DNA of 29,141 nt from Promethearchaeota archaeon (GTDB lineage Archaea > Asgardarchaeota > Lokiarchaeia > Sigyniarchaeales > SOKP01), in contig JAHLWH010000111.1 of NCBI GenBank assembly GCA_019058015.1, forward strand, positions 1 to 29,141. The letters are read 5' to 3'. Shown here piece after piece: positions 1 through 18,346 of this stretch (positions within the stretch are counted from its first letter, which is position 1; each line of letters begins with the position of its first letter). The notes under the pieces are model-generated. The model was not told the origin of the DNA. It saw only the letters and a program-made list of their open reading frames with translations, and made no database searches. The translations under genes were made by a program, and so were the position numbers.

Positions 1-303
1 ATTATTAACCCTGATGGAGTGATATTATCTTCCGCACTTTCAGGAAGAGTAAATGACTCATTATTTGTCTCAATTGGAAAAACTTGATCGGTCATTGGTA
101 ATGATATAGTTAATGCATTAAATACAGGAGCCTTAAAATCCTTTACAATTAATGGAACTCATGGAAAATTTAGTTTAGCGCCAATTGTCAGTGATGTACT
201 TCTTTTAATCTTAAGTGGTCCGAGAGTAAAAGCAGGAATTATACATTTAGCAGTTAGCTTATTTAAAAAAAAATTTAAATCATATTCGGAAAAGAAAAAA
301 TAA
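1..303 (+). CDS. Roadblock/LC7 (MglB-like) domain protein, 5'-truncated by window, with in-frame TGA at 85-87
   Basis: Frame 1 reads IINPDGVILSSALSGRVNDSLFVSIGKT*SVIGNDIVNALNTGALKSFTINGTHGKFSLAPIVSDVLLLILSGPRVKAGIIHLAV..., the roadblock pattern (DG-hydrophobic-S strand, helix, three strands, terminal helix). Ends at TAA 301-303. Not in the ORF track. Confidence 0.75.
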
Positions 304-323
304 TAATCTCTAATTGCTGAATT

Positions 324-1151
324 TTAAAATTTATTTGTTAAATTTTTTTGAATTGTTATATTAGTGATTATTTCATAAATAAAAAATTTTTCGTTGAAAT
401 CAAATTCTTGGATGAATCTGTTTAAATGAAAAATAGATACAATAGGAACTTGAATGTAACTTAATTTAACTTTATTCTCAATTAATGTTACAATCATTGG
501 AATAAGTTTAAAGGGCATAGATGCTTTTATTTTTTGAAGCTCATTTTGATTTAAAAGTATAGTAATTAATTTTGATATAACATCAGGATTTTTTATTAAG
601 GCACTCATTCTTCTTGATTGGAGTTTTGATGCTTTATTAATTGCTGATAAATTATTTGTCCTACAATTCCAATGTTTTGCATCAATTAAAAGAATCAGTC
701 TTCCCAACATGGCTATTACATCTATTTCATACCGTTTTTGATTAGTTTTACGACCATAATTTGAGTGATCAGTAAATCTAAAATTTTTTATTACTTTAAA
801 TTCATTTTTTTCAAAAATCTTTGAAATTAAATCTTCAAATTCTTTCCAATTCAATAATTTTGACAATTTCATTATGTCTATATCTAAATATTTAGCAGCT
901 TCCAAAACAAAAAGAGATTTTTGAACTTTAACGTACTCATTATAAAATGTAAGACCACACTCAATAGATACCGAAAAATCTTTTATTAGTTCAATATCAT
1001 ATTGTGAGAAATTCTCAAAAAAATTTTCTTCAAGAGAGATATTAATATAAGTATCTTGAGTTCTAGATTGTTCTAATTTACTTATATTATTATAAATTTT
1101 TCGAAAAAGTAAAGAAATGGTTTTATATTTATCAGAAAATTTAGAAATCAT
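324..1151 (-). CDS. PD-(D/E)xK nuclease, Mrr/NERD-like restriction endonuclease family
   Basis: WKEFEDLISKIFEKNEF helix followed by YEIDVIA...LLIDAKHW catalytic-type motif. Confidence 0.7.
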   Translation of the reverse strand: MISKFSDKYKTISLLFRKIYNNISKLEQSRTQDTYINISLEENFFENFSQYDIELIKDFSVSIECGLTFYNEYVKVQKSLFVLEAAKYLDIDIMKLSKLLNWKEFEDLISKIFEKNEFKVIKNFRFTDHSNYGRKTNQKRYEIDVIAMLGRLILLIDAKHWNCRTNNLSAINKASKLQSRRMSALIKNPDVISKLITILLNQNELQKIKASMPFKLIPMIVTLIENKVKLSYIQVPIVSIFHLNRFIQEFDFNEKFFIYEIITNITIQKNLTNKF

Positions 1152-1267
1152 TAAATTTCAAGGTAGAAATTTTATATTAAATTTTTATTGATCAATTTTT
1201 TTAATCCTAAGATAATTTATAATACAACGAGATAATTCAATAAGTATAAAATTTCAATAGATAATAT

Positions 1268-1711
1268 GTGAATATAGTGAAAAGCAAAAAATTAGACGAC
1301 GAGTTTAATTTAGTTAAGCATATGTTGCCGGATGTTATAAATAGTAAATTAGAGGTTGTTAAATTTAAACCCGAAGCGATTATTAATTCCTTATCACTTG
1401 AAACTGATATAACAAGAGATGAAGCAAATCTTGTAACTCTAGAGGTAATAAGAAAGATTATCTCTGCAGATCTAAAAATTTTAACTGCACCCTTAATCAG
1501 AGAATTAGTCAATGCTACATTATTATCAAAAGGGTTTGAATTATATCGATATCAATATACTAGATTAGGATTTCCATTTTATGATTTTGGTAAGAAATTG
1601 GAATCTCAAAATATTAGTAGCGAAGATATTTTTAATCATTTAAAAACCGAATACGTGGAAGTACAAAAATTAATAAATAAAATAAAAAATGAAGAATTTA
1701 AAGACAAGTAA
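1268..1711 (+). CDS. Stand-alone ATP-cone domain protein (similar to N-terminus of archaeal class III RNR NrdD)
   Basis: F-KPEAIINSL..ET...EA..VT.EV.RKI...LTAPLIRELVNATLL.KG.E.YR.QYTRLG.P matches the NrdD-type ATP cone. Only 147 aa, no catalytic domain. Confidence 0.8.
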   Translation: MNIVKSKKLDDEFNLVKHMLPDVINSKLEVVKFKPEAIINSLSLETDITRDEANLVTLEVIRKIISADLKILTAPLIRELVNATLLSKGFELYRYQYTRLGFPFYDFGKKLESQNISSEDIFNHLKTEYVEVQKLINKIKNEEFKDK

Positions 1712-1923
1712 AGAAAGAAAAACTAATCTTATTTTTCAAAGATTTAATAATTTCTAACGCTTCTAAAATTAAATTGAATTTATGTTTTGGAACAAATTAA
1801 AAATAATTGAAGATTTAAATAAGTTAAATAGATTAAACTAGTAAAAACTATTGATTGAAATACTAGGAAATTCTATAATAATTTCTATACTATAAAACAT
1901 TATCAGGTAGGATAGGGTATAAG

Positions 1924-3366
1924 TTGGCTAATAGTCAGAATTCAAATGATCTCGAAAATAACGTGAATAATATAGAAAAATCTTCACTTATTAAAGCTAT
2001 TGTTGTATCTATTTTTGATACGGAAGGCCCAACACCAAAATATTATTATCCAGAGGATTTAGATGAAAATTCACGCCTATTAATAGCAATGAAAACCATA
2101 AGTTTGCTTATGGGGGAGGCAACATATCAAGATGGCAATGCAATAGAAGGCGTTAATTATTTTGGCATTTTACCTTTCCCAGATATAAAATTAAATGGAT
2201 TGACCTATTTTTTTCTAATATATGACCCTGAAGCAAGAGGTCAGGCAAAAGCAGCTACAATTACTATTTTAGTTGACGAGGAAAACATATCATTTTTCTA
2301 TGAAAATATTAAATATTTACGAGTTATTATTGACAAATCTGCTTCACAGATCCAAACTGCTAAGGACTCAAATGAAATGAAAAACATTTTAAATTCTCTA
2401 CGTATGCAATTAATAAATTTTATCAAAGATTTAAAACACCCATTTTCTCAAACCAGACAAATAAAAATTTTATTTGCGGGATTGGATAGGTCCGGTAAGA
2501 GTTCATTTGTTCTTGGAATAAAGAAAAAATATTCTGAAATAATAAAAGTCTTACCCACAAAAGGTGTTTCAAGGGAGATAAGTGAGTTATTTGGTGCTCA
2601 ACTCATACGCTGGGAACTTGGTGGTCAGAAAAGCTACCGAGATCAGTATCTTAAAGAAAGTGAAGTTTATTTATATAACGTTGATTTATTATTTTTCTTA
2701 ATTGATGTGCAAGATTTAAAGAGAAGGGAGGAAGGATTAAAATATTTTAAAAAATTAATTGAATCCCTTGAAAACATTGATGATTACCCTCCGATTGTAT
2801 TATGTCTCCATAAAACAGACCCAGACATAAAAAATGACAAACAAATTCGCGAAAACATTGAATTCTTAATTATGAGAATTCAAGAATTTACTCAAAATTA
2901 TTATATTAAAATATTTGAGACATCAATATTTGATCACTGGTCATTAGTCTCTGCCTTTTCCTACGGTATTAGTCGATTATCCCCAAATAGAGAGATTTTT
3001 AGAAAGCAATTGGAGTGGTTTGCTAATAAAACAGATTCTGAATTTATTTTACTCTTAAATGAAAAAGCAATAATTTTATCTAACTTTTCAAGAGATGATG
3101 TCTCAGGAAAAGTCTTCGAGATCTCCGCCCCTCATTTTCAGACGTTATATAAGACATTTAAGGAATTTAAGATTTTGAAAAAGGATTTTCTTGTGTCTTC
3201 CGGAATTTCTCAAACTAAAAAGATTTTATTTAAGAAACTTAATGTTGAGAAATATAATTTATATCTTCTCCTATTCATTAGTAGCGAAGATTATATTAAA
3301 AAAATTGATGAAAATTTGAAAGAGTTTATTTCACGGATTGAAGTATTGATAGACACATACATTTAG
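1924..3366 (+). CDS. Arf/Rag-like small GTPase fused to an N-terminal longin/uDENN-like domain and a C-terminal roadblock/longin-like domain
   Basis: G1 GLDRSGKSS, G2 PTKG, G3 WELGGQ, G4 HKTD, G5 ETSIFD. N-terminal VVSIFDTEGPTPKYYYP (uDENN-like FD..GP motif). C-terminal FILLLNEKAIILSNF roadblock-like strand pattern. TTG start after a purine-rich tract. Confidence 0.85.
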   Translation: MANSQNSNDLENNVNNIEKSSLIKAIVVSIFDTEGPTPKYYYPEDLDENSRLLIAMKTISLLMGEATYQDGNAIEGVNYFGILPFPDIKLNGLTYFFLIYDPEARGQAKAATITILVDEENISFFYENIKYLRVIIDKSASQIQTAKDSNEMKNILNSLRMQLINFIKDLKHPFSQTRQIKILFAGLDRSGKSSFVLGIKKKYSEIIKVLPTKGVSREISELFGAQLIRWELGGQKSYRDQYLKESEVYLYNVDLLFFLIDVQDLKRREEGLKYFKKLIESLENIDDYPPIVLCLHKTDPDIKNDKQIRENIEFLIMRIQEFTQNYYIKIFETSIFDHWSLVSAFSYGISRLSPNREIFRKQLEWFANKTDSEFILLLNEKAIILSNFSRDDVSGKVFEISAPHFQTLYKTFKEFKILKKDFLVSSGISQTKKILFKKLNVEKYNLYLLLFISSEDYIKKIDENLKEFISRIEVLIDTYI

Positions 3367-3397
3367 GGAAAAATAATTTAATTCCTATTTTTAAAAT

Positions 3398-4726
3398 TCA
3401 ATAATTGTTAGAATAAGAATAATTTTGATACATTGCTTCCTTTTTCTTCTTATTTTTACCAGTTTTTATAAAAATATAAATTATGATTAAAAAAGTTATT
3501 AGGATAATTAATCCAACTATAATATACATCATAGTATTATCTTCTATTAAATTTACTTCAAGTACTTTAATGTTTATTGATGTATCATACTTAAAAATTG
3601 CATCAGATTGAAATACAGGATTAGGAAGAACAGAATGTTCACTAACATCATCTGATAAAGATGGAACTTCGAACCATGCGCCAATATTTGATGCTAAATG
3701 AATAAAGTCCATATTATTAAAATAATTATATCCGGCGCTACCCCAAGTTGGGTCGCAAGCAATAAAGCCTATATTGGGAACATAATATTCTAGCCAAGCA
3801 TGTAATAAAGCATTGGAATCAAGATTTCCTGCTGAAATTAGTGAATTTTTAAGATAATTACTATAATAACTCCATTCGGCACCTACTTCGGGATTATTGT
3901 TTGATGTAGCTTGACCAGTAGCAGAAACATTACTTAAAATCATACCCGTGCATTTCCTAGCCGGAATTCCTTGAATTCTTAATAAAGTAATCATCAAATT
4001 AGAGTATTCACTGCAATCTCCTTTTTTATTTTGATATGTCCAAAGAGCACCTCTTTCTTTGACTTGACCTACATATTCAATATTTTCAGAAACATAATCA
4101 TAAATTGCTTTAGCTTTATCAATAGGGTTGCTTAATCCCTCAACAAGGCTATTAGAAAGAGATATTAAAGTAGAGTCATTCATTTCAAAGAGTGGTTCTG
4201 CTTGACAATAGAGGTCATGAATTATATCTGAAGTGTTATATATACCAATATCTCCCTCAGGAATATTAGTATCAAAAGATATTTCATTCAATGTTATAAC
4301 GTATTTCTGATTAATCAAAATTGGAGCACTATTTAAGTTATCAATTGTTCGATTAAATAAATAGTGATGATTACCGAACTTATCTGTTTGAGTAATTATA
4401 TCAGTCCCATTACCTTCAATTGAATGATATTCTAATGATGATACTTGTATCGGGGGAGTAAATTCATATTCGCTGGGAATACGATTATCAAAAAGAGAAT
4501 ATTTTAAGTAAAATGTATAAGAATTTGGACCTAAACGAGTTAAAGTCCAATTTATCGTAATTTCGTAAGTAACATTTTGAATCATATTATAATGTGTTAT
4601 TCCTGGGTATTCTGAGTTAATTGAAACTTGTTCTAGCCCTTTCACAAAATTAAGGTGAATAAATGAGAGATGACAAAAAGTTAATTCAAATAAAAGGAAT
4701 GCTAATGCAATAGTTTTTTTTTGCAT
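3398..4726 (-). CDS. Membrane-anchored transglutaminase-like (TGc) protein
   Basis: Catalytic triad motifs GDCSEYS (Cys), HAWLEYY (His), CDPTW (Asp); N-terminal signal peptide; C-terminal TM helix followed by a basic tail. Confidence 0.88.
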   Translation of the reverse strand: MQKKTIALAFLLFELTFCHLSFIHLNFVKGLEQVSINSEYPGITHYNMIQNVTYEITINWTLTRLGPNSYTFYLKYSLFDNRIPSEYEFTPPIQVSSLEYHSIEGNGTDIITQTDKFGNHHYLFNRTIDNLNSAPILINQKYVITLNEISFDTNIPEGDIGIYNTSDIIHDLYCQAEPLFEMNDSTLISLSNSLVEGLSNPIDKAKAIYDYVSENIEYVGQVKERGALWTYQNKKGDCSEYSNLMITLLRIQGIPARKCTGMILSNVSATGQATSNNNPEVGAEWSYYSNYLKNSLISAGNLDSNALLHAWLEYYVPNIGFIACDPTWGSAGYNYFNNMDFIHLASNIGAWFEVPSLSDDVSEHSVLPNPVFQSDAIFKYDTSINIKVLEVNLIEDNTMMYIIVGLIILITFLIIIYIFIKTGKNKKKKEAMYQNYSYSNNY

Positions 4727-4840
4727 AATATTATCAATTCTTATTTTTATCGATCTAATAAAGTCAAAAAATATAAAATTGACTATTTAATATCGGAAAA
4801 TTCCATTCAAAAAATATATTAATCCAAAAGAGGCTTATAT

Positions 4841-5485
4841 TTGATTTACAAAGTATTTTTGATTGATGGGGATGCTGGTATTCTTATTTTAGAAAAATCT
4901 TTTAAGGAATTTAATAAAAGTAAAAACTTAAAAACAGAATTATTAACTGATTTCTTTAAAGAAGTAAATAAGATGATTGATGATTTACAAGATGCCATGA
5001 CCAAGGGGAATAGAGTAGGTGATACAAATAGGATTATTTCTGGAGATTACTCCACGATAATAATGTACTACCATTCATTGTCTCATGTGCTATTTTGCTC
5101 AATATCTGATGATGATGATGATAAAGAAAAACTAATCGAAATATTACAAAATTGTGGTTTAACTTTTTATAAAAAACATGAAAAGGATTTAAAGAAATTT
5201 AGAAAAACCTCAGAGAAAAATTATTTTTTAAGTTTTATTGATGAGATAGATGTATTATCAGTCGGAGGTCGTGGAGCAGAAATTTTACCAAAACTAATTA
5301 TCGCAAAAAATGTACTTGAACGTATCAAAAATATGGGTATAATAAATAATAAAGAATTAAAAATTGCTCTAGAATGTAATGGAAAAAAATCCCCACTCCG
5401 AATTTCAAGAATTTTTAATACTATAGAAAGCAAAATAAGAGAGAGCCTTAAAAAATTGGAAAATCTAGAAATTATTAAATTATAA
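4841..5485 (+). CDS. Longin-like domain protein with C-terminal winged helix-turn-helix
   Basis: N-terminus MIYKVFLIDGDAGILILEKSF and later VLFCSISD...LIEILQ...FYKKH fit a longin fold; C-terminal ECNGKKSPLRISRIF...IRESLKKLENLEIIKL fits a wHTH. Confidence 0.65.
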   Translation: MIYKVFLIDGDAGILILEKSFKEFNKSKNLKTELLTDFFKEVNKMIDDLQDAMTKGNRVGDTNRIISGDYSTIIMYYHSLSHVLFCSISDDDDDKEKLIEILQNCGLTFYKKHEKDLKKFRKTSEKNYFLSFIDEIDVLSVGGRGAEILPKLIIAKNVLERIKNMGIINNKELKIALECNGKKSPLRISRIFNTIESKIRESLKKLENLEIIKL

Positions 5486-5590
5486 AAACTCAAATTGGGA
5501 AAAAAAAGAAAATTTCAAAAATTCATTTTAATTAATAAACTCAAAATAATAATTTCATAATTTTTGAAAAATTGGAAAAATCGAATTATC

Positions 5591-6058
5591 ATGGTACAAA
5601 AACCAATAGTTATATCACCAAGTAGAGAAAAGCATTTTAAAAATGGTACCGGATTTTCACTTAAAGAAGTTAGAAAATCAAATAAAACATTGCAAGATTT
5701 AAAAAGCGCAAAAATAAAGATTGATTTTCGTAGAAAAACAGAACATCAACAAAATATTGAATATTTAAATAATTTAAAATTAGATTTGAAGAAAAAGCCA
5801 AAACGTGAGCCTTATAGGAAAAAGGAAGAAAGACTTAAAAAAATTATAAAAAAGAAAGTAACTAAGAAGGCTCCAATAAAATTAACTGTATTAGACAAAT
5901 TAGGTCCATCTACTGAGAAAAAAATGATGGAAATTGGAATTCCTGATGTTCAAACACTAATTAAAGAAGATCCTAAGGAAGTTGCTAGCTTAGTCTCAGG
6001 ATGTTCAGAAGAACGAGTAATTAAATGGATTGAAGCAGGTAAGAAATTAGTTGAGTAA
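5591..6058 (+). CDS. rpl13e: 50S ribosomal protein L13e fused to a C-terminal helix-hairpin-helix domain
   Basis: GTGFSLKEV...IKIDFRRKTEHQQNIEYL matches L13e; Lys-rich linker; then LTVLDKLGPSTEKKMMEIGI..V..L...P.EV...V.G.SEERV.KWIE HhH. ATG 5591 preferred over TTG 5564. Confidence 0.8.
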   Translation: MVQKPIVISPSREKHFKNGTGFSLKEVRKSNKTLQDLKSAKIKIDFRRKTEHQQNIEYLNNLKLDLKKKPKREPYRKKEERLKKIIKKKVTKKAPIKLTVLDKLGPSTEKKMMEIGIPDVQTLIKEDPKEVASLVSGCSEERVIKWIEAGKKLVE

Positions 6059-6091
6059 TTATACTTAATAAAGAAAGTTAGTGGAATAACA

Positions 6092-6583
6092 TTGCAAAAA
6101 AATTATTATGTTTATTCTAACGACAAATGTAAAATAGTAATAAATAAAACCCCAATCTGGTTTGAAGAAGTAAAAGTAGAAGGGAATCATGAAAAAGGAA
6201 CAATATTCTTCGAATCTCATGATGAATTTGACGAAAATTTTGGTAAAAGTGTAAAAATTGAATTATCCTGGTACCAAAAGGCAAGAGAACAATATTATCA
6301 TGCCAAAGAAGTGCAAGATTCTATTGATACATATAATAGCATTAATATTGTAGTTACAAAAAAAGAAAACATTTGGCTCTTAAGTCATGAATGCACATAT
6401 TGGTTTGGAACAAGGACTAAAATGATAAGAAAAGGTTATTACCCTTCAAAAATCATTCATTCAATATTTTTTTGTGAAATTACTGGGCGAGTTATAACTA
6501 TTCATTTTGAAGTGATTAGAAAATATTATTTAAACTATGAGAAATTTATAATTGAAATGCTTCAATCGATTATATGCCATTAA
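6092..6583 (+). CDS. Hypothetical protein (beta-rich, ends in ...SIICH)
   Basis: 163-aa ORF co-oriented 33 bp after rpl13e; no recognised family. Confidence 0.65.
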   Translation: MQKNYYVYSNDKCKIVINKTPIWFEEVKVEGNHEKGTIFFESHDEFDENFGKSVKIELSWYQKAREQYYHAKEVQDSIDTYNSINIVVTKKENIWLLSHECTYWFGTRTKMIRKGYYPSKIIHSIFFCEITGRVITIHFEVIRKYYLNYEKFIIEMLQSIICH

Positions 6584-6613
6584 ATAATAAATAAATTCTT
6601 ATTTTACTGATTT

Positions 6614-7354
6614 TTATTTTCGCAACCAAATAAAAAAATTATCCTTATTTCCTGGTCCTCCTAAAATTGAAAATTTTCGGATTTTAAAGTGTTTAGTTAA
6701 TTTTTTAAGTTCTTTTTCTGAAAATAAGTGGTAATAGCGAATGTAAGATCCTTTATTATTCGATTTTTTCCAAGGTATAATTATATCACCAAATTCTTGC
6801 AACCCGTTGCTATATTGAGATTTCCTATATTTGTGAGAGAACTTTCTTTTTAACCAATCTTTTATGAAATATTTTCGAAACCTTTTTTGCCATTTTCTCC
6901 ATACAGATAGGATAAATGAACCATTTTCTATCATTAAATTTTGGATATTATGCATAAAATCTGAACGATTTTTTTTGCTATATAAGTGGTGAATCGAAGC
7001 GATTGCAAAGATATGGTCAAATACTTCTTTTCTAAATGGAAGGTAAATTAGATCAGATAATATTATTTCGATTTTTCTTGTTTTTAAGCGATTATTTCCA
7101 TATCTAATCAATTCATCTCTTTGATTTTTAATAATTTTCAATAATTCAATCGAATTATCTAATCCGATTATTCGAAAATCATTTTTATTACCTCCAATAA
7201 TTGACATATTCCTACCATTTCCACATCCAGCATCTAAGATTGTTCCGCTAACATCAAGATCGCCTTCCATTATGGATTCATAAAACTCTTTAAACGCTCT
7301 CCAGGGCTTCCTCCTTTTTAAATCAAAATCTTTTGCAAAACAATCATAAATCAT
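6614..7354 (-). CDS. Class I SAM-dependent methyltransferase, Trm9/ALKBH8-like
   Basis: Motif I ILDAGCGNGRN, GLDNS, AIASIHHL, and the Trm9-type GDIIIPWK...RYYHLFSEKEL. Confidence 0.8.
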   Translation of the reverse strand: MIYDCFAKDFDLKRRKPWRAFKEFYESIMEGDLDVSGTILDAGCGNGRNMSIIGGNKNDFRIIGLDNSIELLKIIKNQRDELIRYGNNRLKTRKIEIILSDLIYLPFRKEVFDHIFAIASIHHLYSKKNRSDFMHNIQNLMIENGSFILSVWRKWQKRFRKYFIKDWLKRKFSHKYRKSQYSNGLQEFGDIIIPWKKSNNKGSYIRYYHLFSEKELKKLTKHFKIRKFSILGGPGNKDNFFIWLRK

Positions 7355-7383
7355 AATATACCAAAATCATAATATACCAAAAT
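7348..7383. repeat. Tandem duplication of 16-bp unit AAATCATAATATACCA (2 copies plus AAAT)
   Basis: Identical units at 7348-7363 and 7364-7379; overlaps the start codon of the methyltransferase. Confidence 0.9.
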
Positions 7384-7489
7384 ATAAAAAAATATAGTTA
7401 GCAAAAATAACAAATCCCATAAAACTTTCAATTATTTGATAATATTTTAGAGTTTCTAATAATTTTATGTAAAAAGTTACTAAATTGAA

Positions 7490-8836
7490 GAACTGTATCT
7501 CATATAGAGTGCATGTTCATCTAATAATATTAATGAAGAGGATTAAAGTTTTAAAAATATTAAGAATATATAGATTAAATTTATAGAGAAAAATGAGATT
7601 AACTGAACAAATACAGGTAAGAGCATCGGCAGAATTATCTAAATTGTGTCATAAATCCAAGAATCTTTATAATTTAGCTAATTGGTATTTTAGACAAGAT
7701 TTCTTCAAATTAGAAAATATTCTTTCTTATTACGATTTAGACTTTATTCTTAAGCATAAAAATACATACAAGGAAATGCCCTCTCAGACTTCTCAGCAAA
7801 TACTTAAATTGGTGAGTAGAAATTGGAAATCGTTTTTTAATGCTAAAAAAGATTACAAAGTGAATTATAAGAAGTATAAACGGAGGCCCAGACCTCCAAA
7901 ATATAAGTCTAAGAATGGAGAATTTATTGTAATTTTTACAAACCAACAATGCAGAATAAAGAATGGTTATCTACATTTTCCAGAAAAGTCTAATCTCAAC
8001 CCTATAAAGACGAGAATTAAAGAAAAATTAAATGAAGTAAGGATAATTCCTAAAGGAGTTTGTTATGTTGTAGAAATAATTTATGAGAAAAAAGAGCAAG
8101 ATTTAAGCCTGGATAAAGATTATAAATTATCTATTGATTTAGGATTAAATAATCTCATAACCGCTGTAAATAATATTGGAGTAAAGCCAATTATTATTAA
8201 GGGTGGGGTTGTAAAATCGGTAAATCAATATTATAATAAGCAATTAGCGTATTATAGAAGTATTGAAAATAAGAAAGGCAATTTTCGGGATACTAAAAGA
8301 ATACAAAAGTTACATTTAAAAAGTAATAATAAAATAAATACCTTGTTTCATAGAATTTCCAAGAATCTGATTGATTATTGTATTAAAAATGATATTGGTT
8401 CAATTGGGATTGGATATAATAATGGGTGGAAACAAAATATCAATATTGGGAAAAGAAATAACCAGAAGTTCGTTCAAATTCCATTCTGTAAATTATTAAA
8501 ACAAATAAAGTATAAAGCAAAATTAAAAGGAATTATTTTTAAAATTACAGGCGAACCATATACTTCTAAATGTAGTTTTCTGGATAATGAACCGATAAAA
8601 AGGCATAAAAGATATTTGGGCAAAAGAATCTCCAGAGGTTTGTTTAGAGCTTCTGATGGGACAATTATCAATGCGGATGTAAATGGAGCTTATAATATAA
8701 TGAAGAAGGCATTCCCAAATTCCATTTCGGTTGATGGAATAGAGGCATTAGGACTAATACCGCAAATAATTAATCAAAACATAGTTGATAATATTATTTG
8801 AAATAAGATTTATCTCCTTTGATAAGTTTTAATAAT
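7490..8836 (+). mobile_element. Putative non-autonomous IS200/IS605-family element carrying only tnpB; ends approximate
   Basis: tnpB without adjacent tnpA; imperfect hairpin at 7490-7518 upstream and hairpins at the 3' end. Confidence 0.5.
7593..8801 (+). CDS. tnpB: TnpB RNA-guided endonuclease (IS200/IS605 superfamily, IS1341-like solo tnpB)
   Basis: N-terminal LCHKSKNLYNLAN, PSQTSQQ, RPPKYK; RuvC-I SIDLGLNNL; GEPYTSKCSFLD; RuvC-III INADVNGAYNI. Confidence 0.93.
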   Translation: MRLTEQIQVRASAELSKLCHKSKNLYNLANWYFRQDFFKLENILSYYDLDFILKHKNTYKEMPSQTSQQILKLVSRNWKSFFNAKKDYKVNYKKYKRRPRPPKYKSKNGEFIVIFTNQQCRIKNGYLHFPEKSNLNPIKTRIKEKLNEVRIIPKGVCYVVEIIYEKKEQDLSLDKDYKLSIDLGLNNLITAVNNIGVKPIIIKGGVVKSVNQYYNKQLAYYRSIENKKGNFRDTKRIQKLHLKSNNKINTLFHRISKNLIDYCIKNDIGSIGIGYNNGWKQNINIGKRNNQKFVQIPFCKLLKQIKYKAKLKGIIFKITGEPYTSKCSFLDNEPIKRHKRYLGKRISRGLFRASDGTIINADVNGAYNIMKKAFPNSISVDGIEALGLIPQIINQNIVDNII

Positions 8837-13551: not shown

Positions 13552-14358
13552 ATGGCTCCTTTTACGGCAAGTGTTATAGCTAAAAAGAGATATTTTATTA
13601 TATATTTTATTTTAATATGGGGAAGTTGCATTCCTCCCATTTTACAATTTTGGTTTTTTTGGAAAATTCTAAATATTAATGAATTATTATTTTTTTCTCT
13701 TTTGCCATTAGAATTTCTTCTTTTTTATTTAACTTTAGTTTTTAGTTCAATATTTTTTGCAAAAATAATCTTAATTTTTGTAAATTTATTTCATAAACCT
13801 CGAGAAGGTGTGTTCAAAAGAGATCCTAAAAATAGAGATTATTGTTATTGGAGCCTTCGATCAATGATTATAAAATGGCCAGCATGGATCAGTCATTCAT
13901 TCCCCGTTCCTTGGCATGATGTAATTTTAATGAAAATATTTGGAGTAAAAACAAATTTTTCAAACTCAACTTTTGATGGATGGATAAATTGTGAATTTAT
14001 TGAATTTGGAAATAGTATATCGGTTGGTCAAGCTGCGATAATATTATCTTCAATGATTATTAGCGATTATTTAATCATTAAAAGAGTTAAAATAAGAGAT
14101 AATGTAATCATTGGCTCGCATTCAGTTATTTCACCTGGAACAATTATTGGAAAAAATTGTATACTTTCTGCATTTTCTTATACTATGGTTGACCAAGAAT
14201 TAGAAGAAGGTTGGGTTTATATAGGGATTCCAGCAAAAAAATATAAAGAAAATAAATTTATAAAGACTGAAAAAGAGTTAAAGATTAAAAAAAAATTAAA
14301 GGAATCAGAAAAATGGGATAGTTACATTGAAAAACGGGAGAGTATCACGTCAAAATAG
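13552..14358 (+). CDS. Membrane LbetaH acyltransferase-like protein, paralog 3
   Basis: TM segments, HKPREGVF, KIFGVKT, IEFGNSISVGQAA, VKIRDNVIIGSHSVISPGTIIGKNCIL, WVYIGIPAKK. Confidence 0.82.
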   Translation: MAPFTASVIAKKRYFIIYFILIWGSCIPPILQFWFFWKILNINELLFFSLLPLEFLLFYLTLVFSSIFFAKIILIFVNLFHKPREGVFKRDPKNRDYCYWSLRSMIIKWPAWISHSFPVPWHDVILMKIFGVKTNFSNSTFDGWINCEFIEFGNSISVGQAAIILSSMIISDYLIIKRVKIRDNVIIGSHSVISPGTIIGKNCILSAFSYTMVDQELEEGWVYIGIPAKKYKENKFIKTEKELKIKKKLKESEKWDSYIEKRESITSK

Positions 14359-14402
14359 GAAAATATTAAGATAAATTAAATTTAAAAAAAATCTTCTATA
14401 AG

Positions 14403-15383
14403 TTAATCTAATTCCTTTGGAATATATCCATAAGTCTCTTTAAATTTGGTTTTAATAGTTTCGAAATTATATTCCTGAGATTGCGCTCCCATTGATTGAA
14501 CAATAAAAGAACCAATAACGGATCCTAATTTACAAGCATCTTCTAATGACATTCCCTTGACTAATCCCGATAAATAACCAGCACGATAGCCATCTCCTGC
14601 TCCCGTTGGATCAATAACATCATTAACTTTGCAGCAAGGAATTTCATATTTCATATTTTTTTCTTTAAAATATAAAATCGAACCATTTTCACCCATTGTT
14701 ATTATAACAATTGGTATCAAATTGTAAAGCTCATCATCAGAGAAGTTGGTTTTTTGTTTAATAATCTCAATCTCATTTTCGTTGCAAATCAATACTTGAG
14801 CTTTTTCAAAAATATTTATCAATTCTTGATGTTGAAATAATGGGAGCACTTGTCCAGGGTCAAAAATGAAAGGTATTCCAAGTTCTTCTAATTCTTCTGC
14901 AAAATGGATCATGGCTGGAACACTCTGAACTGAATTAATAGCAAAAAAATATTCGTTAGGATCTTTAATTTTCGATTTTAGTGAGAAATCAACGTTTTTG
15001 TCCAATGCTCCACCATGAAAAGTTATCATTTGATTTTTTGAATTATCATTTACTACAAAACATGCTGCAGTGTATAAATCATCATATATTTCAATAAGTT
15101 GATTTATCTTCTCAAATTTATCTAAATGCTCCTTATAACCAAGACTTATGAAGTCCTTTCCGACTGAACCACATATATCACAATGAATACCCAATTTACC
15201 AATATGATAAGAAATATTGCCTGCAGTCCCTCCAAATTGACAAGTTCTAGAACTGGCAGTTACAATTGATTGATATTTTCGATTCTCTACATCAATGCTA
15301 ACAACATCTAAGAAGTTTTTATCGAAATTCATAATATGATCATATGCAATAGAACCTAAAACCAGAATTTTATTCTTGTTCAT
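14403..15383 (-). CDS. PfkB/ribokinase-family kinase, nucleoside/adenosine kinase-like
   Basis: GSIAYDHIM, FGGTAGNI, FDPGQ, CNENE, DPTGAGDGYRAG. Confidence 0.9.
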   Translation of the reverse strand: MNKNKILVLGSIAYDHIMNFDKNFLDVVSIDVENRKYQSIVTASSRTCQFGGTAGNISYHIGKLGIHCDICGSVGKDFISLGYKEHLDKFEKINQLIEIYDDLYTAACFVVNDNSKNQMITFHGGALDKNVDFSLKSKIKDPNEYFFAINSVQSVPAMIHFAEELEELGIPFIFDPGQVLPLFQHQELINIFEKAQVLICNENEIEIIKQKTNFSDDELYNLIPIVIITMGENGSILYFKEKNMKYEIPCCKVNDVIDPTGAGDGYRAGYLSGLVKGMSLEDACKLGSVIGSFIVQSMGAQSQEYNFETIKTKFKETYGYIPKELD

Positions 15384-15611: not shown

Positions 15612-17042
15612 ATGGTTGATGATCAACAAGACTTTGACAAATTTGATACTTTATTCCATCCTAAACATATAGCTTTTATTGGAGCTTCAGAAAAATCAGC
15701 TCTCGGATCTATGCTTTTTTTGAGATCTTTTAAAAACTCTCAATGGTCAGAAACTTTTTATCCAATTAACCCAAGAAGTGAAAAAATTCTTGATTGGAAA
15801 TGTTATCCTTCTGTTCTAGATGTTCCATATCCTGTTGATACGGCTTATATTTCCACAAAGACAAAATATATCCCAAAAATAATGAAGGAATGCGTTGATA
15901 AAAGAATTCCTTGGGTGATAATTTTTTCCTCTGGATTTTCTGAGACAGGAGATCCTGAGAGAAAAAAATTAGAAAGGGAAATAGTGGAGATAATTAAAAG
16001 AACTGATACAAGAGTTATCGGCCCCAATTGTTTAGGACCTTTTAATGGAGAAACGGGGATGGCATTTACTTTTTCTACTCCATTTGGAGTTCCTGGCTCA
16101 GTTTCTTTTATGAGCCAATCTGGAGGGCACCTCACTCAATTAGTTGATGTGGGTTTCAAACGTGATCTTAGATTTCGATATGGTATTTCATTCGGTAATC
16201 AGATAGATTTAAATTGTTTAGATTTCTTAAGGCATTTCCGTAGAGATATTAAAACAAAAGTAATTGCTATATATTTAGAATCTTTTGGATCCGCAAATGG
16301 TCATGAATTTTATTTGGAATTGAGAAAGACAACCAAAACTAAACCAGTTATAATTTGGAAAGGTGGATTTACAGAAGATGGTTCTCATGCGGCCTTTTCA
16401 CATACAGGAGCTATAGCTTCAAATCAAAAATTATGGGACTCAATGGCAAAGCAAACAGGGGCAATCTTAGTAAAAAATAATGATGAATTTTGGAATATAA
16501 TAAAAACTATAGAATTATTATTCTCAAATCATCTTCCCAATGGAAGAAATGTAGGAATTATCACCCCTGGTGGTGGATCATCGGTAAATGTTACTGATTT
16601 ATTTGCATTTCACAATTTAAAGGTTCCTATGTTAACATCGAGGTCTCAAGAAAAAATTGCAAATATTCTGCCAGATGTTAATGTGAATATCAAGAATCCG
16701 ATAGACTTAGGGGCTTCCGGGTTTATTTTAGATATTTTTGCAGATTGTATAGAGATTGTAGTTGATGACCCAAATATTGATATAGTTATCGTTCCATTAT
16801 GGCCAGATCATTTGTATCGACATGTTTTCAATAGAATGATTAAAATTCAAAAAAGAATTTCAAAACCATTTGCTTTTTGCTTGCCCAGCATTGCAGATTC
16901 TATTGAATTGGCAAAAAAATTTAATATTGTTAAGAAAAATTTACATAAAAACCGTGTTCTTTACTTCTTTTCTTTAAAAGAGGCTGCAAAAAGTATTTCC
17001 CTATTTTGTGATTATTGTGATTATTTAAATTTTGGAAGATAA
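15612..17042 (+). CDS. acdA: ADP-forming acyl-CoA synthetase alpha-type subunit (CoA-binding protein)
   Basis: PKHIAFIGAS, YPINP, YPSVLDVP, IGPNCLG, SQSGG, phospho-His motif SHTGAIA, NPIDLG. Confidence 0.85.
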   Translation: MVDDQQDFDKFDTLFHPKHIAFIGASEKSALGSMLFLRSFKNSQWSETFYPINPRSEKILDWKCYPSVLDVPYPVDTAYISTKTKYIPKIMKECVDKRIPWVIIFSSGFSETGDPERKKLEREIVEIIKRTDTRVIGPNCLGPFNGETGMAFTFSTPFGVPGSVSFMSQSGGHLTQLVDVGFKRDLRFRYGISFGNQIDLNCLDFLRHFRRDIKTKVIAIYLESFGSANGHEFYLELRKTTKTKPVIIWKGGFTEDGSHAAFSHTGAIASNQKLWDSMAKQTGAILVKNNDEFWNIIKTIELLFSNHLPNGRNVGIITPGGGSSVNVTDLFAFHNLKVPMLTSRSQEKIANILPDVNVNIKNPIDLGASGFILDIFADCIEIVVDDPNIDIVIVPLWPDHLYRHVFNRMIKIQKRISKPFAFCLPSIADSIELAKKFNIVKKNLHKNRVLYFFSLKEAAKSISLFCDYCDYLNFGR

Positions 17043-18346
17043 TCTTTTTGCAACTCAATCATTTCGTTAAAAATTGCTTCAGCCATTTCGGCATTTCCCA
17101 CATTTGGATCGATGGTTAGACATTGTAATGCAATTTCACAGGATCTTTTTATGACAGCATCAATACATAAATCCTGCACACATGCTTCGATGCGAAGTAA
17201 TGCTGCTATACCTTTAGGCAAATTACCGATTTTTATACCATGAACCCCATCACCATCAACCCACACAGGTCCTTCGATTATTAAATCTTGAGGTAAATTA
17301 TCTATAAATCCATCATTCGGTATATTTACTGAACTTTCATAACTCTTTTTGCCTGTAATAATTGCTTCAATTATCGGAATCGCACGCTCACCAGTAGAAT
17401 GTTGAGGTAATAACCTCATCCTTTTAAATGTTCCTTTTTTAAAACGTCTATGAAATCTCATAATGCGATCGTAAATTGCCTTTCCGCCTTGGTCGGTATG
17501 ATCAATCCAATCTATCATATCCTGAGTTTTTGTAAATTCCTCTCCAAATTGCAGATATTCACCTAGATGATTATCACAAGCATATGAAAAATATCCAAAT
17601 TTTTTATAAACCTCAAATGTTAATTCAGAATATTCAAATCGATTTTTAACCTTATTAAGATAATTTAAAGATTTTTTATTAAATTCTGGCATTAAGTTTT
17701 TGCCTGTTTTAAAATCTACTAACCCAATTAAAAAACCAAAGTGATTTAATCCAACAGCAGTTATTTTAAAATCTTCAAGTTTTTTATTAAACATTTTTGG
17801 GAGATTTTTATTCAAATAACCGATTTGATGACACAGGCCAATAAATTCTAAACTTTTTGTGCTTCTTTTAATTGCTAAACATACCCTTGACATAGGATTT
17901 GAGAAATTAATAAAAAATGCATTAGGACAAATCTTTTCAACGTCTTTTACAATTTCTATGATCGGTGGAATTATTCTGAATGCATGAAAAGTCCCCCCAG
18001 GACCTCCACATTCCCCCAGAATCTGGGTTGAGCCATATTTTCTCGGTATTTCATAATCTTGCCTCCATAATTCCATTCGATCACCAACCTCTATAGAATT
18101 TATTACGAAATTAGCATTTTCAAGGGCTTTTTGACGATTTGTGGTGTGCTCGATAGTGAAATCCTTCCCTAATTTTTCATTTTCATTAACAATTAATTCA
18201 TAAATTATTTCTAATTTCTTTTTATCAATATCATGCAATACAATAGTTGAACCTTGTAAAATGTTGCTTAAAAAAATATCAGTGAGCATTGAGGGTCCAA
18301 ATGAAGTACTGCCTGCTCCAATTAATACAATACGGTGATTCGGCAT
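17021..18346 (-). CDS. Glycoside hydrolase family 4 (NAD+-dependent alpha-galactosidase/glucosidase, MelA-like)
   Basis: IVLIGAGSTSF, GECGGPGG, INFSNPM, GLCHQ, GLNHF, DNHLGEY. Confidence 0.92.
   Translation of the reverse strand: MPNHRIVLIGAGSTSFGPSMLTDIFLSNILQGSTIVLHDIDKKKLEIIYELIVNENEKLGKDFTIEHTTNRQKALENANFVINSIEVGDRMELWRQDYEIPRKYGSTQILGECGGPGGTFHAFRIIPPIIEIVKDVEKICPNAFFINFSNPMSRVCLAIKRSTKSLEFIGLCHQIGYLNKNLPKMFNKKLEDFKITAVGLNHFGFLIGLVDFKTGKNLMPEFNKKSLNYLNKVKNRFEYSELTFEVYKKFGYFSYACDNHLGEYLQFGEEFTKTQDMIDWIDHTDQGGKAIYDRIMRFHRRFKKGTFKRMRLLPQHSTGERAIPIIEAIITGKKSYESSVNIPNDGFIDNLPQDLIIEGPVWVDGDGVHGIKIGNLPKGIAALLRIEACVQDLCIDAVIKRSCEIALQCLTIDPNVGNAEMAEAIFNEMIELQKDYLPKFK

Follow-up and report, generated by a model that had tools for sequence, protein, structure and literature searches.

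A gene block is kept together within a single order of Asgard archaea of the Loki type (Promethearchaeia), and its right-hand part occupies positions 1-7354 of the 29,141-nt stretch of archaeal DNA analysed here (contig C105, positions 1-29141, of genome G000; hereafter, the window). The block encodes a Rag-family GTPase fused to longin and roadblock domains and, downstream on the same strand, a 214-aa longin and winged-helix protein; its left-hand part lies on contig C21 and contains two further Rag-like GTPases. As the best explanation, held tentatively, we propose a one-chain Rag-type switch with the 214-aa protein as its partner or output and with the roadblock and Rag-like genes in the same system. 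An earlier note on this DNA had listed four plus-strand parts within 5.5 kb (a roadblock protein, a stand-alone ATP cone, a GTPase and a longin and winged-helix protein), interrupted by two opposite-strand genes, and had read them as one Rag/Ragulator/GATOR-like circuit. All of these genes, including the two on the minus strand, were located where the earlier note had placed them, except that its roadblock protein is a piece of a larger gene.

Domain architecture of the Rag-family GTPase

The GTPase gene (1924..3366, plus strand) encodes a protein of 480 aa, in which a folliculin-type longin domain, a Rag G domain and a roadblock domain were delineated by Pfam, profile and AF2 analyses, in agreement with the Rag-like motifs, longin head and roadblock tail described earlier. 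Residues 181-392 match the Gtr1_RagA model (E 7.9e-24, 84.8 bits with a cut-off of 22), and the Arf model also matches with 59 bits. The G domain (residues 179-350, nt 2458-2973) carries the complete set of G1-G5 motifs, GLDRSGKS, PTKG, WELGGQ, HKTD and TSIFD (alignment A2), the G3 motif having E instead of D in the source genus. The combination of HKxD in G4 and TSIxD in G5 is typical of Rag GTPases. Straight after the G domain, the AF2 model shows a roadblock domain (residues 356-479, nt 2989-3360) with the order alpha-beta-beta-alpha-beta-beta-beta-alpha; Rag GTPases dimerise through such domains. A profile of 23 relatives of the protein matched, across its G and C-terminal domains, LokiRagO (8yl2, 4e-55) and human RagA (1e-23); it aligned to residues 6-273 of RagA, and Foldseek comparison of the AF2 model with 8yl2, RagA, RagC and Gtr1 gave a TM of ~0.7 over ~300 residues. 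By its Gtr1_RagA match, its roadblock C-terminal domain and its G1-G5 motifs the protein belongs to the Rag/Gtr family. The longin-Rag-roadblock architecture as such is already published.

The N-terminal domain (residues 23-168, nt 1990-2427) has a longin fold in the AF2 model, with strands at 23-32 and 35-42, a helix at 48-63, strands at 80-85, 90-100 and 108-118, and helices at 119-144 and 149-168, that is, in the order beta-beta-alpha-beta-beta-beta-alpha-alpha. Its match to the Pfam Folliculin model is equal to the cut-off (23.3 bits), and the same model matches the N-termini of 10 of 11 orthologues at E<=0.01; a profile search of PDB sequences returned no FLCN, NPRL2 or SMCR8 match. The glycine and proline with which strand 2 begins (G35-P36, the GP motif) are invariant in 23/23 alignment rows, paralogues included. 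Arg105, in the strand 4-5 loop (which joins strands 90-100 and 108-118), is invariant in 11/11 orthologues and is not kept in the four rows of alignment A2 that represent 503-aa-type paralogues. By the position of this loop only, without superposition, Arg105 may be likened to the arginine finger of FLCN and NPRL2. In the accessible part of a published study (PMC12290439), the GP motif and the arginine finger are described as marks of FLCN, NPRL2, SMCR8 and some Asgard longins that are absent from FNIP2 and NPRL3.

The longin and winged-helix protein

The 214-aa protein (4841..5485, plus strand), encoded by a single-copy gene, consists of a longin domain (residues 1-150) and a winged helix (residues ~151-214), as proposed earlier and as now supported by an AF2 model (pLDDT 87) and fold searches. 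The longin domain gave Z-scores of 12-14 to synbindin, VAMP7 and Sec22, with MglB also among its fold matches (Z 9.1-9.5), and the winged helix gave Z 9.4 to the winged helix in 3k9t. The protein has an invariant acidic loop, CSISDxDD, and its longin domain has no GP motif. Profile comparison of this domain with the GTPase longin detected no relationship (probability 0.2).

The likeness to NPRL2/NPRL3 drawn in the earlier note is unsupported by sequence: the protein has no match to Pfam NPR2/NPR3 at E<=10. Its closest folds are SNARE/TRAPP longins. Over residues 1-214, the comparisons with 8fw5_C (Z 8.9) and 8adl_S (Z 8.3) have an rmsd of 13-14 A, versus Z 12-14 for plain longins. Searching 1.84 billion representatives with a profile returned 61 matches, all of 46-339 aa, and the named entries among the 10 that were looked up are Asgard. 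The cultured Promethearchaeum syntrophicum also encodes a member of the family (WP_147663353.1). The protein is a generic longin and a member of an Asgard-wide family without a name. Its C-terminal domain is matched in the window protein by HTH_5 at E 0.14 only, and in distant relatives the corresponding part is matched by TrmB (3e-5 to 1.6e-4) and HTH_47 (1e-4 to 4e-4), all below cut-offs, with weak HTH_24 matches as well. The winged helix is short, with one wing strand; folds of this kind also mediate protein contacts.

Conservation of gene order

The earlier note had suggested a comparison of synteny and had named the absence of conserved linkage as evidence against its circuit; linkage was found. 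In all of the 70 species loci assessable among 80, the GTPase gene lies upstream of the 214-aa gene on the same strand, directly adjoining it in 12 (gaps 22-302 nt) and separated from it by a transglutaminase gene in 58. Among 41 genomes searched, the two genes are linked in 28 of the 33 related genomes that hold both, and the GTPase orthologue occurs without the 214-aa gene in 8, including the one-contig genome G032. As a control, one unrelated adjacent gene pair from the same window was followed through the family genomes outside the genus, where it was found on one contig in 0/16 versus 19/19 for the GTPase and 214-aa genes. Judged by conservation and this one control pair, the clustering exceeds chance.

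Order conservation alone does not single out the GTPase and 214-aa pair, since L13e-like, 163-aa, methyltransferase and nuclease-like genes are equally kept in the block. The first part of the window contains a gene (324..1151, minus strand) for a 275-aa protein that weakly resembles NERD/Mrr-type nuclease folds, all matches being below the cut-offs; the gene holds this slot in 59/61 assessable loci. The 214-aa gene is followed by a co-directional gene for a 164-aa protein with L13e-like and helix-hairpin-helix parts (5564..6058, plus strand; 66/66 loci), the only L13e-type match in the genome, then by a gene for a 163-aa conserved protein of unknown family (6092..6583, plus strand; 65/66 loci), and the conserved block is closed by a class-I methyltransferase of 246 aa (6614..7354, minus strand; 65/66 loci). 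Within the genus, dN/dS is 0.08-0.40 across all block genes.

This mixture on both strands of L13e-like, methyltransferase, nuclease-like and NrdD genes is what would be expected if the genes were neighbours by descent only, in a slowly rearranging segment, with the GTPase, longin and winged-helix, roadblock and ATP-cone proteins acting in separate processes, an explanation that we consider unlikely. It agrees with the dissolution of the block in the sister family f4, where the GTPase and 214-aa genes are unlinked in 4/4 genomes (in one case 2.27 Mb apart on a single contig), and with its absence around distant relatives: in other families of the phylum, neither a GTPase nor a transglutaminase gene was seen within ~3.5 kb of the genes for 12 distant homologues of the 214-aa protein. 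The genome is also very rich in these part families, with 27 Gtr1_RagA and 16 Robl_LC7 matches. As far as the accessible parts of the two sources go, GTPase genes of MK-D1 generally do not share an operon with genes for roadblock or longin proteins (Tran et al. 2024, PMC10933270), and most Asgard ESP genes lie outside conserved neighbourhoods (Liu et al. 2020, 10.1101/2020.10.19.343400). Against common descent alone stand the difference from the control pair and the persistence of the GTPase and 214-aa pair both with and without the transglutaminase insertion. Moreover, three Rag-like GTPases, a roadblock protein and a longin protein are gathered within ~16 kb, which is hard to credit to chance, tandem paralogy explaining part of it.

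A second alternative concerns the intervening gene, which encodes a 442-aa transglutaminase-core protein with an N-terminal signal-like segment and a C-terminal membrane segment (3398..4726, minus strand) and is divergent from the 214-aa gene, with a 114-nt spacer between them in the window. The 214-aa protein could be a local transcription factor for this surface protein gene and only incidentally linked to the GTPase. In family f4 the transglutaminase gene is the sole block neighbour that the 214-aa gene retains, and this pair is the one part of the block that survives there (adjacent and divergent in 2/4 genomes, G033 and G031; 2.5 kb apart in G027), and the C-terminal winged helix with its weak TrmB-type matches in relatives would suit such a role. 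Nevertheless, we regard the proposal as rather improbable, since the 214-aa gene has no transglutaminase gene beside it in 12 of the 70 loci or in the 12 distant relatives. In five such genomes (78-99% complete) no transglutaminase orthologue was found at E<=1e-10, with positive controls found at 1e-33 or better, and yet in them the 214-aa gene is retained right behind the GTPase gene. Inspection of the spacer also revealed AT-rich TATA-like words only, with no shared palindrome seen.

The upstream roadblock and ATP-cone genes

The gene at 1..303 (plus strand) is truncated by the contig end and comprises the last 100 codons of a Zn-ribbon and roadblock (Robl_LC7) protein of ~313 aa, the N-terminal part of which lies at the end of contig C21; the end of C21 and the start of the window overlap by ~79 nt with 3 mismatches. 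The piece contains an in-frame TGA at 85-87. Position 86 is T (TTA, Leu) in G001, G004 and the contigs of 4/4 sequencing runs, which makes the TGA either an assembly error or a rare variant. By itself the window piece has no Pfam match; the full-length orthologue in G004 (313 aa) has a Zn ribbon and a Robl_LC7 match of 23.5 bits versus a cut-off of 23, and a relative in G030 reaches 20.9 bits. The roadblock assignment of the earlier note is probably right, for what proves to be the C-terminal fragment of a fusion protein. A small single-domain LAMTOR-like protein is ruled out by the orthologues, which are 313-354 aa long and have an N-terminal Zn ribbon. The Zn-ribbon-roadblock gene is found upstream in 20 of 24 assessable loci, and in G030 it has a Rag-like GTPase gene 138 nt before it and the gene for the longin-Rag-roadblock GTPase 54 nt after it, all three on one strand.

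The stand-alone ATP-cone gene (1268..1711, plus strand; 147 aa, with the start in relatives 3 codons later) scores 18.2 bits with the Pfam ATP-cone model, below the cut-off of 25.8. Homology suggests, as the earlier note did, an ATP cone: residues ~8-142 align with the N-termini of 580-720-aa ribonucleotide-reductase-type open frames (E 1e-14 to 1e-20), one of which has matches to NRDD (4.9e-68) and ATP-cone (25.1 bits), and the protein is collinear with NrdD-type reductases over their first ~140 residues. The gene has a dN/dS of 0.16-0.21, i.e. it is under purifying selection. Across 63 species, its slot is occupied by a complete anaerobic reductase (NrdD) with ATP-cone and NRDD domains in 45, by an ATP-cone-only gene on either strand in 14, and by nothing in 4. 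Accordingly, the ATP cone is a ribonucleotide-reductase-type neighbour, a real, selected gene in a reductase slot but no conserved member of the module.

These data bear on the circuit proposed in the earlier note, namely a Rag/Ragulator/GATOR-like nutrient or nucleotide sensor in which the ATP cone senses ATP/dATP. All four domain types are present, the ATP-cone gene is selected, gene order is conserved, and in some species the slot does hold an ATP cone alone. A sensor role for the ATP cone is nonetheless unsupported, because the slot most often holds a complete reductase; in addition, other genomes of the family carry stand-alone ATP-cone genes of the same kind in unrelated positions, and the block of family f2 lacks the gene. 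With the 214-aa protein having no sequence link to NPRL2/3, the roadblock gene being a 313-aa Zn-ribbon fusion unlike LAMTOR subunits, and the block holding L13e-like, methyltransferase and nuclease-like genes just as firmly, this circuit seems very improbable. A nutrient-sensing role for the block is speculation without support.

Comparison with known systems

The closest known system is that of the Asgard longin-GTPase-roadblock Rag-like GTPases, as presented in the accessible part of Tran et al. 2024 (PMC10933270), with the structurally solved relatives LokiRagO (8YL2) and LokiRagM (8ZLA/9M28). LokiRagO is the best match to the G and roadblock parts of the window GTPase in both sequence and fold, but at 342 aa it is devoid of the N-terminal longin domain that the window GTPase has. 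Whereas the GTPases in that source are generally not in longin or roadblock operons, the window GTPase group has a conserved longin and winged-helix neighbour.

Like eukaryotic Rag/Gtr proteins, the window GTPase combines a Rag-type G domain with a roadblock C-terminal domain, and its longin domain shares the GP motif of FLCN, NPRL2 and SMCR8, together with a conserved arginine that may correspond to theirs; unlike in the eukaryotic Rag/GAP systems, this putative GAP-type longin is fused to the GTPase in cis. The 214-aa protein, a neighbouring longin without a GP motif, recalls FNIP/NPRL3 beside FLCN/NPRL2, yet homology to NPRL or FNIP is not detectable from its sequence, and its C-terminal part is a TrmB-like winged helix in place of DENN or NPRL C-terminal domains. 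NPRL2-like longin proteins that share with it a longin plus a small C-terminal domain occur in Thor and some Loki genomes, according to the accessible part of Liu et al. 2020 (10.1101/2020.10.19.343400); the 214-aa protein differs in being unmatched by NPR2/NPR3 and in having SNARE/TRAPP longins as its best folds. The roadblock protein and the second Rag-like GTPase near the window GTPase resemble Rag/Ragulator, and the Zn ribbon of the roadblock protein has no counterpart in Ragulator. The encoding of a small GTPase near roadblock- or longin-fold regulators is also seen in bacterial MglA-MglB, but the window G domain is of the Rag/Arf and not the MglA type, a regulator fold is fused in cis, and the neighbour protein is a longin with a beta-beta-alpha start, unlike the roadblock protein MglB.

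A putative one-chain Rag-type switch

At the centre of the system that we tentatively propose would be a one-chain GTP switch made of a folliculin/NPRL2-class longin, a Rag-like G domain and a roadblock domain, in which the longin, with its GP motif and conserved arginine, may act as a GAP. The 214-aa protein would be the partner or output of this switch: its longin domain would dock on the GTPase, taking the place that FNIP/NPRL3 has beside FLCN/NPRL2, and its TrmB-like winged helix would relay the state of the switch, in the simplest case to DNA. Probably also part of this system are the Zn-ribbon-roadblock protein encoded upstream and a 323-aa Rag-like GTPase, in the arrangement of a Rag pair on a roadblock platform. 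The opposite-strand gene for the membrane-anchored transglutaminase-like protein lies between the GTPase and 214-aa genes in most loci but not in all. Any physiological input to such a switch would be conjectural, and a functional circuit among the block products is plausible but unproven; the neighbourhood itself, an order-specific and conserved assembly of already known Asgard signalling parts, is real.

Gene layout and the left end of the contig

The window, with a G+C content of 22-33%, makes up all of contig C105, in a genome of 3.84 Mb and 283 contigs. Its left part carries the 3' fragment of a roadblock gene (1-303, + strand), followed by genes for a 275-aa nuclease-like protein (324-1151, -), a 147-aa ATP-cone protein (1268-1711, +), a 480-aa GTPase (1924-3366, +), a 442-aa transglutaminase-like protein (3398-4726, -) and a 214-aa longin and winged-helix protein (4841-5485, +); after 5485, and up to 7354, lie genes for proteins of 164 aa (+), 163 aa (+) and 246 aa (-). 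These positions agree with the layout described in the earlier note, in which four plus-strand genes are broken up by two minus-strand genes. The gene at 5564-6058 encodes the sole L13e-type match of the genome, fused to a helix-hairpin-helix domain; the protein scores under the curated cut-offs (Pfam, 23.8 versus 24.9; NCBIfam, 42 versus 96), and phmmer searches of the PDB with this and the 163-aa protein returned no match. The NCBIfam search added nothing to the family assignments. A 402-aa TnpB/OrfB_IS605 gene with a Cas12f-like TNB domain (7593-8801) is located between the methyltransferase gene (6614-7354, -) and a 556-aa gene; since these two genes directly adjoin each other in the related genomes G004 and G001, the TnpB gene is an insertion particular to the present genome.

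Frame 1 of the roadblock fragment consists of 100 codons with an in-frame TGA at 85-87, and by itself it matches no Pfam family. The remainder of the gene was found on another contig of the same genome, C21, whose last ~79 nt are shared with the window start apart from 3 mismatches. Because the codon is TTA in G001 and G004, and position 86 is T in the contigs of all four sequencing runs, two of which may have yielded this DNA (at position 142 the window likewise differs from all four), the TGA is an error or a rare variant at the contig end, and recoding, as by selenocysteine, was dropped as an explanation on the same evidence. The assembly broke at the window start on strain variation or error. 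The orthologue in G004 has 313 aa, starting with a Zn ribbon and ending in a domain that matches Robl_LC7 (23.5 bits; cut-off, 23); the gene thus encodes a Zn-ribbon-roadblock fusion and no small protein of the LAMTOR kind.

Conservation of the gene neighborhood

A conserved neighborhood specific to the taxonomic order surrounds a Rag-type switch, to which a folliculin-type longin domain is fused in cis, and a constant longin and winged-helix neighbor. In a first set of 41 genomes (the present one and 40 relatives), an orthologue of the GTPase was identified in all 41 and the 214-aa gene in 33, in 28 of which it lies downstream of a longin-Rag-roadblock GTPase on the same strand and contig; four genomes, all from family f4, lack this linkage, and one could not be assessed. 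The second set was made up of 80 species loci, the best of the 102 retrieved with a profile of the 214-aa family, and the GTPase was found upstream of the 214-aa gene at all 70 of these that had enough upstream DNA. The two genes are directly adjacent at 12 of these loci (gaps of 22-302 nt) and separated by the transglutaminase gene at the other 58. The conserved linkage called for by the earlier proposal thus exists for this pair. Downstream of the 214-aa gene, the L13e-like gene (66/66 loci), the 163-aa gene (65/66) and the methyltransferase gene (65/66) are retained, and upstream the nuclease-like gene (59 of 61 assessable loci) and the Zn-ribbon-roadblock gene (20 of 24).

Further to the left, on C21 and in relatives, the neighborhood continues with genes for a Rag-like GTPase of 323 aa, a SLOG protein, an AIR-synthase-like protein and a 503-aa paralogue of the longin-Rag-roadblock GTPase. 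On C21, the 503-aa paralogue and the 323-aa GTPase occupy 7322-8833 and 13728-14699. In most relatives these two genes lie 4-10 kb left of the region corresponding to the window, which places three Rag-like GTPases within ~16 kb, and in genome G030 the 323-aa-type GTPase, the Zn-ribbon-roadblock protein and the longin-Rag-roadblock GTPase are encoded in succession, separated by 138 and 54 nt. Genome G016 has two tandem copies of the 323-aa-type GTPase gene (contig C115, 815-2812), after which a glycoside hydrolase family 3 gene is inserted into the block.

The stability of the block was compared with that of an unrelated adjacent gene pair of the window (17021-18346 and 18482-19912), which served as the one control. 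The control genes are adjacent inside the genus and share a contig in none of the 16 genomes of the family outside the genus that hold both; by the same measure, the GTPase/214-aa pair is linked in 19 of 19, and the block is therefore unusually stable. The phosphoglucomutase-like gene at 18482-19912 is 13 kb from the block here, only 4-6 kb from it in five genomes of family f2 (G025, G028, G032, G036 and G038), and on other contigs than the block in other genera of its own family. Stability extends to genes without an evident tie to GTPases, as would be seen if neighboring genes had merely descended together, a reading that we regard as unlikely beside the scattering of the control pair.

The linkage is limited in several lineages. 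The 214-aa gene was not found in 8 of the 41 genomes, all of which encode the GTPase, and in one genome (G032) a gene for a small Arf-like GTPase takes its place. Around 12 distant relatives of the 214-aa protein, neither a GTPase nor a transglutaminase gene was found within ~3.5 kb, the neighbors being unrelated. In family f4 the block is dissolved and only the divergent transglutaminase/214-aa pair survives, adjacent in two of four genomes and 2.5 kb apart in one. Such a pair would be expected if the 214-aa protein regulated the transglutaminase gene locally; in five genomes that retain the GTPase/214-aa pair, however, searches that recovered the positive controls gave no transglutaminase orthologue, and thus the 214-aa protein is not merely a transglutaminase regulator, a role that we consider quite unlikely. 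A word count over 32 transglutaminase/214-aa spacers returned AT-rich TATA-like words only.

The ATP-cone slot

The ATP-cone protein scores 18.2 bits in Pfam, under the cut-off of 25.8; its residues ~8-142 are collinear with the N-termini of reductase-type proteins of 580-720 aa, and within the genus the gene is under purifying selection (dN/dS 0.16-0.21). In most relatives, a protein of ~600 aa that combines an ATP cone with an NRDD domain (4.9e-68) is encoded in this slot, which the nuclease-like and GTPase genes flank. Among 63 assessable loci, 45 carry a full NrdD gene, 14 a gene for an ATP cone alone (3 on the same strand and 11 on the opposite one), and 4 have no gene in the slot, which is vacant in family f2 as well. 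Phylogenetic analysis placed the stand-alone ATP cones outside the syntenic NrdD clade, with the exception of a 162-aa form of genus g6, in a tree whose very long branches fit truncation in situ as well as they do replacement by a stand-alone paralogue. Whichever the origin, this is a ribonucleotide-reductase slot, and the ATP cone is hence not a constant neighbor of the GTPase. The earlier note had proposed a full nutrient- or nucleotide-sensing circuit with the ATP cone as a possible sensor; the present analysis takes the ATP cone off the list of likely module members, and the full circuit now appears highly improbable, the linkage of the GTPase/214-aa pair notwithstanding, and its nutrient-sensing role speculative.

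Domain architecture of the GTPase

The GTPase matches the Pfam families Gtr1_RagA (7.9e-24) and Arf (5e-16), and a profile built from 23 relatives retrieved the Lokiarchaeota RagA-like structure 8yl2 (4e-55), human RagA (1e-23, spanning the G and C-terminal domains) and then Gtr1 and Gtr2. In the AF2 model (pLDDT 74), a longin fold (residues 23-168) is followed by the G domain (179-350) and a roadblock fold (356-479), and the top Foldseek matches are 8yl2, RagA/C and Gtr1 (TM ~0.7 over ~300 residues). This longin-GTPase-roadblock layout was reported earlier for MK-D1 (Tran et al. 2024, PMC10933270), and longin-Rag fusions have been described (Liu et al. 2020, 10.1101/2020.10.19.343400). The G motifs are GLDRSGKS, PTKG, WELGGQ, HKTD and TSIFD. 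The G3 motif (2611-2628) reads WELGGQ in the genus and its two closest clusters and WDLGGQ in all other orthologues, the exchange of D for E being a conservative change at the position of the Mg-water ligand.

The N-terminal 179 residues match the Pfam Folliculin model at 23.3 bits, exactly the cut-off, and the same match was obtained for 10 of 11 orthologue N-termini (E<=0.01). A profile search of the PDB with this domain returned nothing relevant, and the ESM Atlas gave one cluster, a lead only, with NPR2 on 19% of its members (score 0.81). All 23 alignment rows have G35-P36, directly ahead of strand 2 of the longin domain, and all 11 orthologues have R105, in the loop between strands 4 and 5; the 503-aa paralogues keep the GP motif and not the arginine. 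The GAP longins FLCN, NPRL2 and SMCR8, like some longins of Asgard archaea, are characterized by such a GP motif with an arginine finger beside it (PMC12290439), and the loop position suggests that R105 may be an arginine finger of the FLCN/NPRL2 type. In one f4 genome (G033), a stand-alone 179-aa protein encoded two genes from the GTPase orthologue (contig C1, 10366-10905) resembles the longin domain at the N-terminus of the GTPase itself (26% identity over 175 residues, E 3e-10).

The longin and winged-helix protein

The 214-aa protein has no Pfam family. Its AF2 model (pLDDT 87) contains a longin fold (residues 1-150) and a four-helix winged-helix unit, and the proposed longin plus winged-helix assignment proved right on the model and its fold matches. 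Among the VIA-align matches listed, which are dominated by the longin domain, synbindin, VAMP7, Sec22 and CPLANE longins score Z 12-14, and residues 148-214 match a winged helix (Z 9.4, 64 residues, rmsd 2.2 A). The NPRL-type chains 8fw5_C and 8adl_S align with the whole chain at Z 8.3-8.9 with an rmsd of 13-14 A, so that, compared with the plain longins, the suggested likeness to NPRL2/3 reduces to a shared layout. Foldseek matches to longin, roadblock and some GATOR1 chains (E ~1e-3) agree with VIA-align. The protein is without a GP motif, and the CSISDxDD loop that follows its strand 5 is invariant.

The gene is single-copy in the genome (protein query, 1e-5 level) and its family is small, with 40 clusters in one search and 61 representatives, all of <=339 aa, among 1.84 billion proteins; members occur in 116 of 251 sampled genomes of the phylum. 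Those named among 10 clusters looked up come from Promethearchaeota, Hodarchaeota and Heimdallarchaeota MAGs and from Promethearchaeum syntrophicum. The C-terminal part of distant relatives weakly matches TrmB, HTH_47 and HTH_24, and one such relative also matches the clathrin-adaptor small-chain (longin) model (1.7e-5). Against the PDB, the family profile gave nothing significant (VAMP7-type longins at best E 0.18-0.69, unrelated proteins 0.009-0.08), and the ESM Atlas returned unnamed Promethearchaeota/Thorarchaeota clusters only, with HTH_47 and TrmB leads below 0.9. Longer fused forms were absent from 2759 candidates, which is weak evidence. In genome G075 (contig C1, 6438-7649), a distant relative fused to TPR repeats is encoded between two genes for Ser/Thr kinases with TPR repeats.

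Proposed role of the neighborhood

The individual parts and the GTPase architecture have been published (Tran et al. 2024; PMC12290439; Liu et al. 2020). We found no paper on this neighborhood or on the 214-aa family; the supplements of Tran et al. and Liu et al. may list the genes. Rag-, Arf- and Rab-like GTPases number in the dozens in Asgard archaea, longin and roadblock proteins are still more numerous there, and in the literature consulted gene order rarely shows which regulator serves which GTPase. The present orthologue group is an exception, since one Rag-like GTPase with a built-in folliculin-type longin has one single-copy longin and winged-helix neighbor across a whole order, which includes a genome whose protein does not differ from that of Promethearchaeum syntrophicum, a cultured species.

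The conserved linkage is consistent with a system, to which we give slightly less than an even chance as a whole, in which the 214-aa protein would pair with the GTPase in an FNIP/NPRL3-like position, its winged helix would relay the state of the GTPase, and the roadblock protein would belong to the same system as the switch, as would the second Rag-like GTPase. A complex prediction for the full GTPase and the 214-aa protein scored 0.16 versus a mark of 0.32, was run without controls and is evidence neither way. The GTPase/214-aa pair, together with the Zn-ribbon-roadblock protein and the second Rag-like GTPase, constitutes a concrete set for joint testing. A direct path from GTP switch to transcription, which we judge very unlikely, would require that the Rag-type GTPase with its own folliculin-type GAP longin control the 214-aa protein as a DNA-binding protein through longin-longin pairing, with the latter as the archaeal equivalent of FNIP/NPRL3, the partner without catalytic function; the block, with its ribosomal-protein gene and ribonucleotide reductase, would then be a growth-control module predating TOR. 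If true, such a path would operate in those archaea that are most closely related to eukaryotes.
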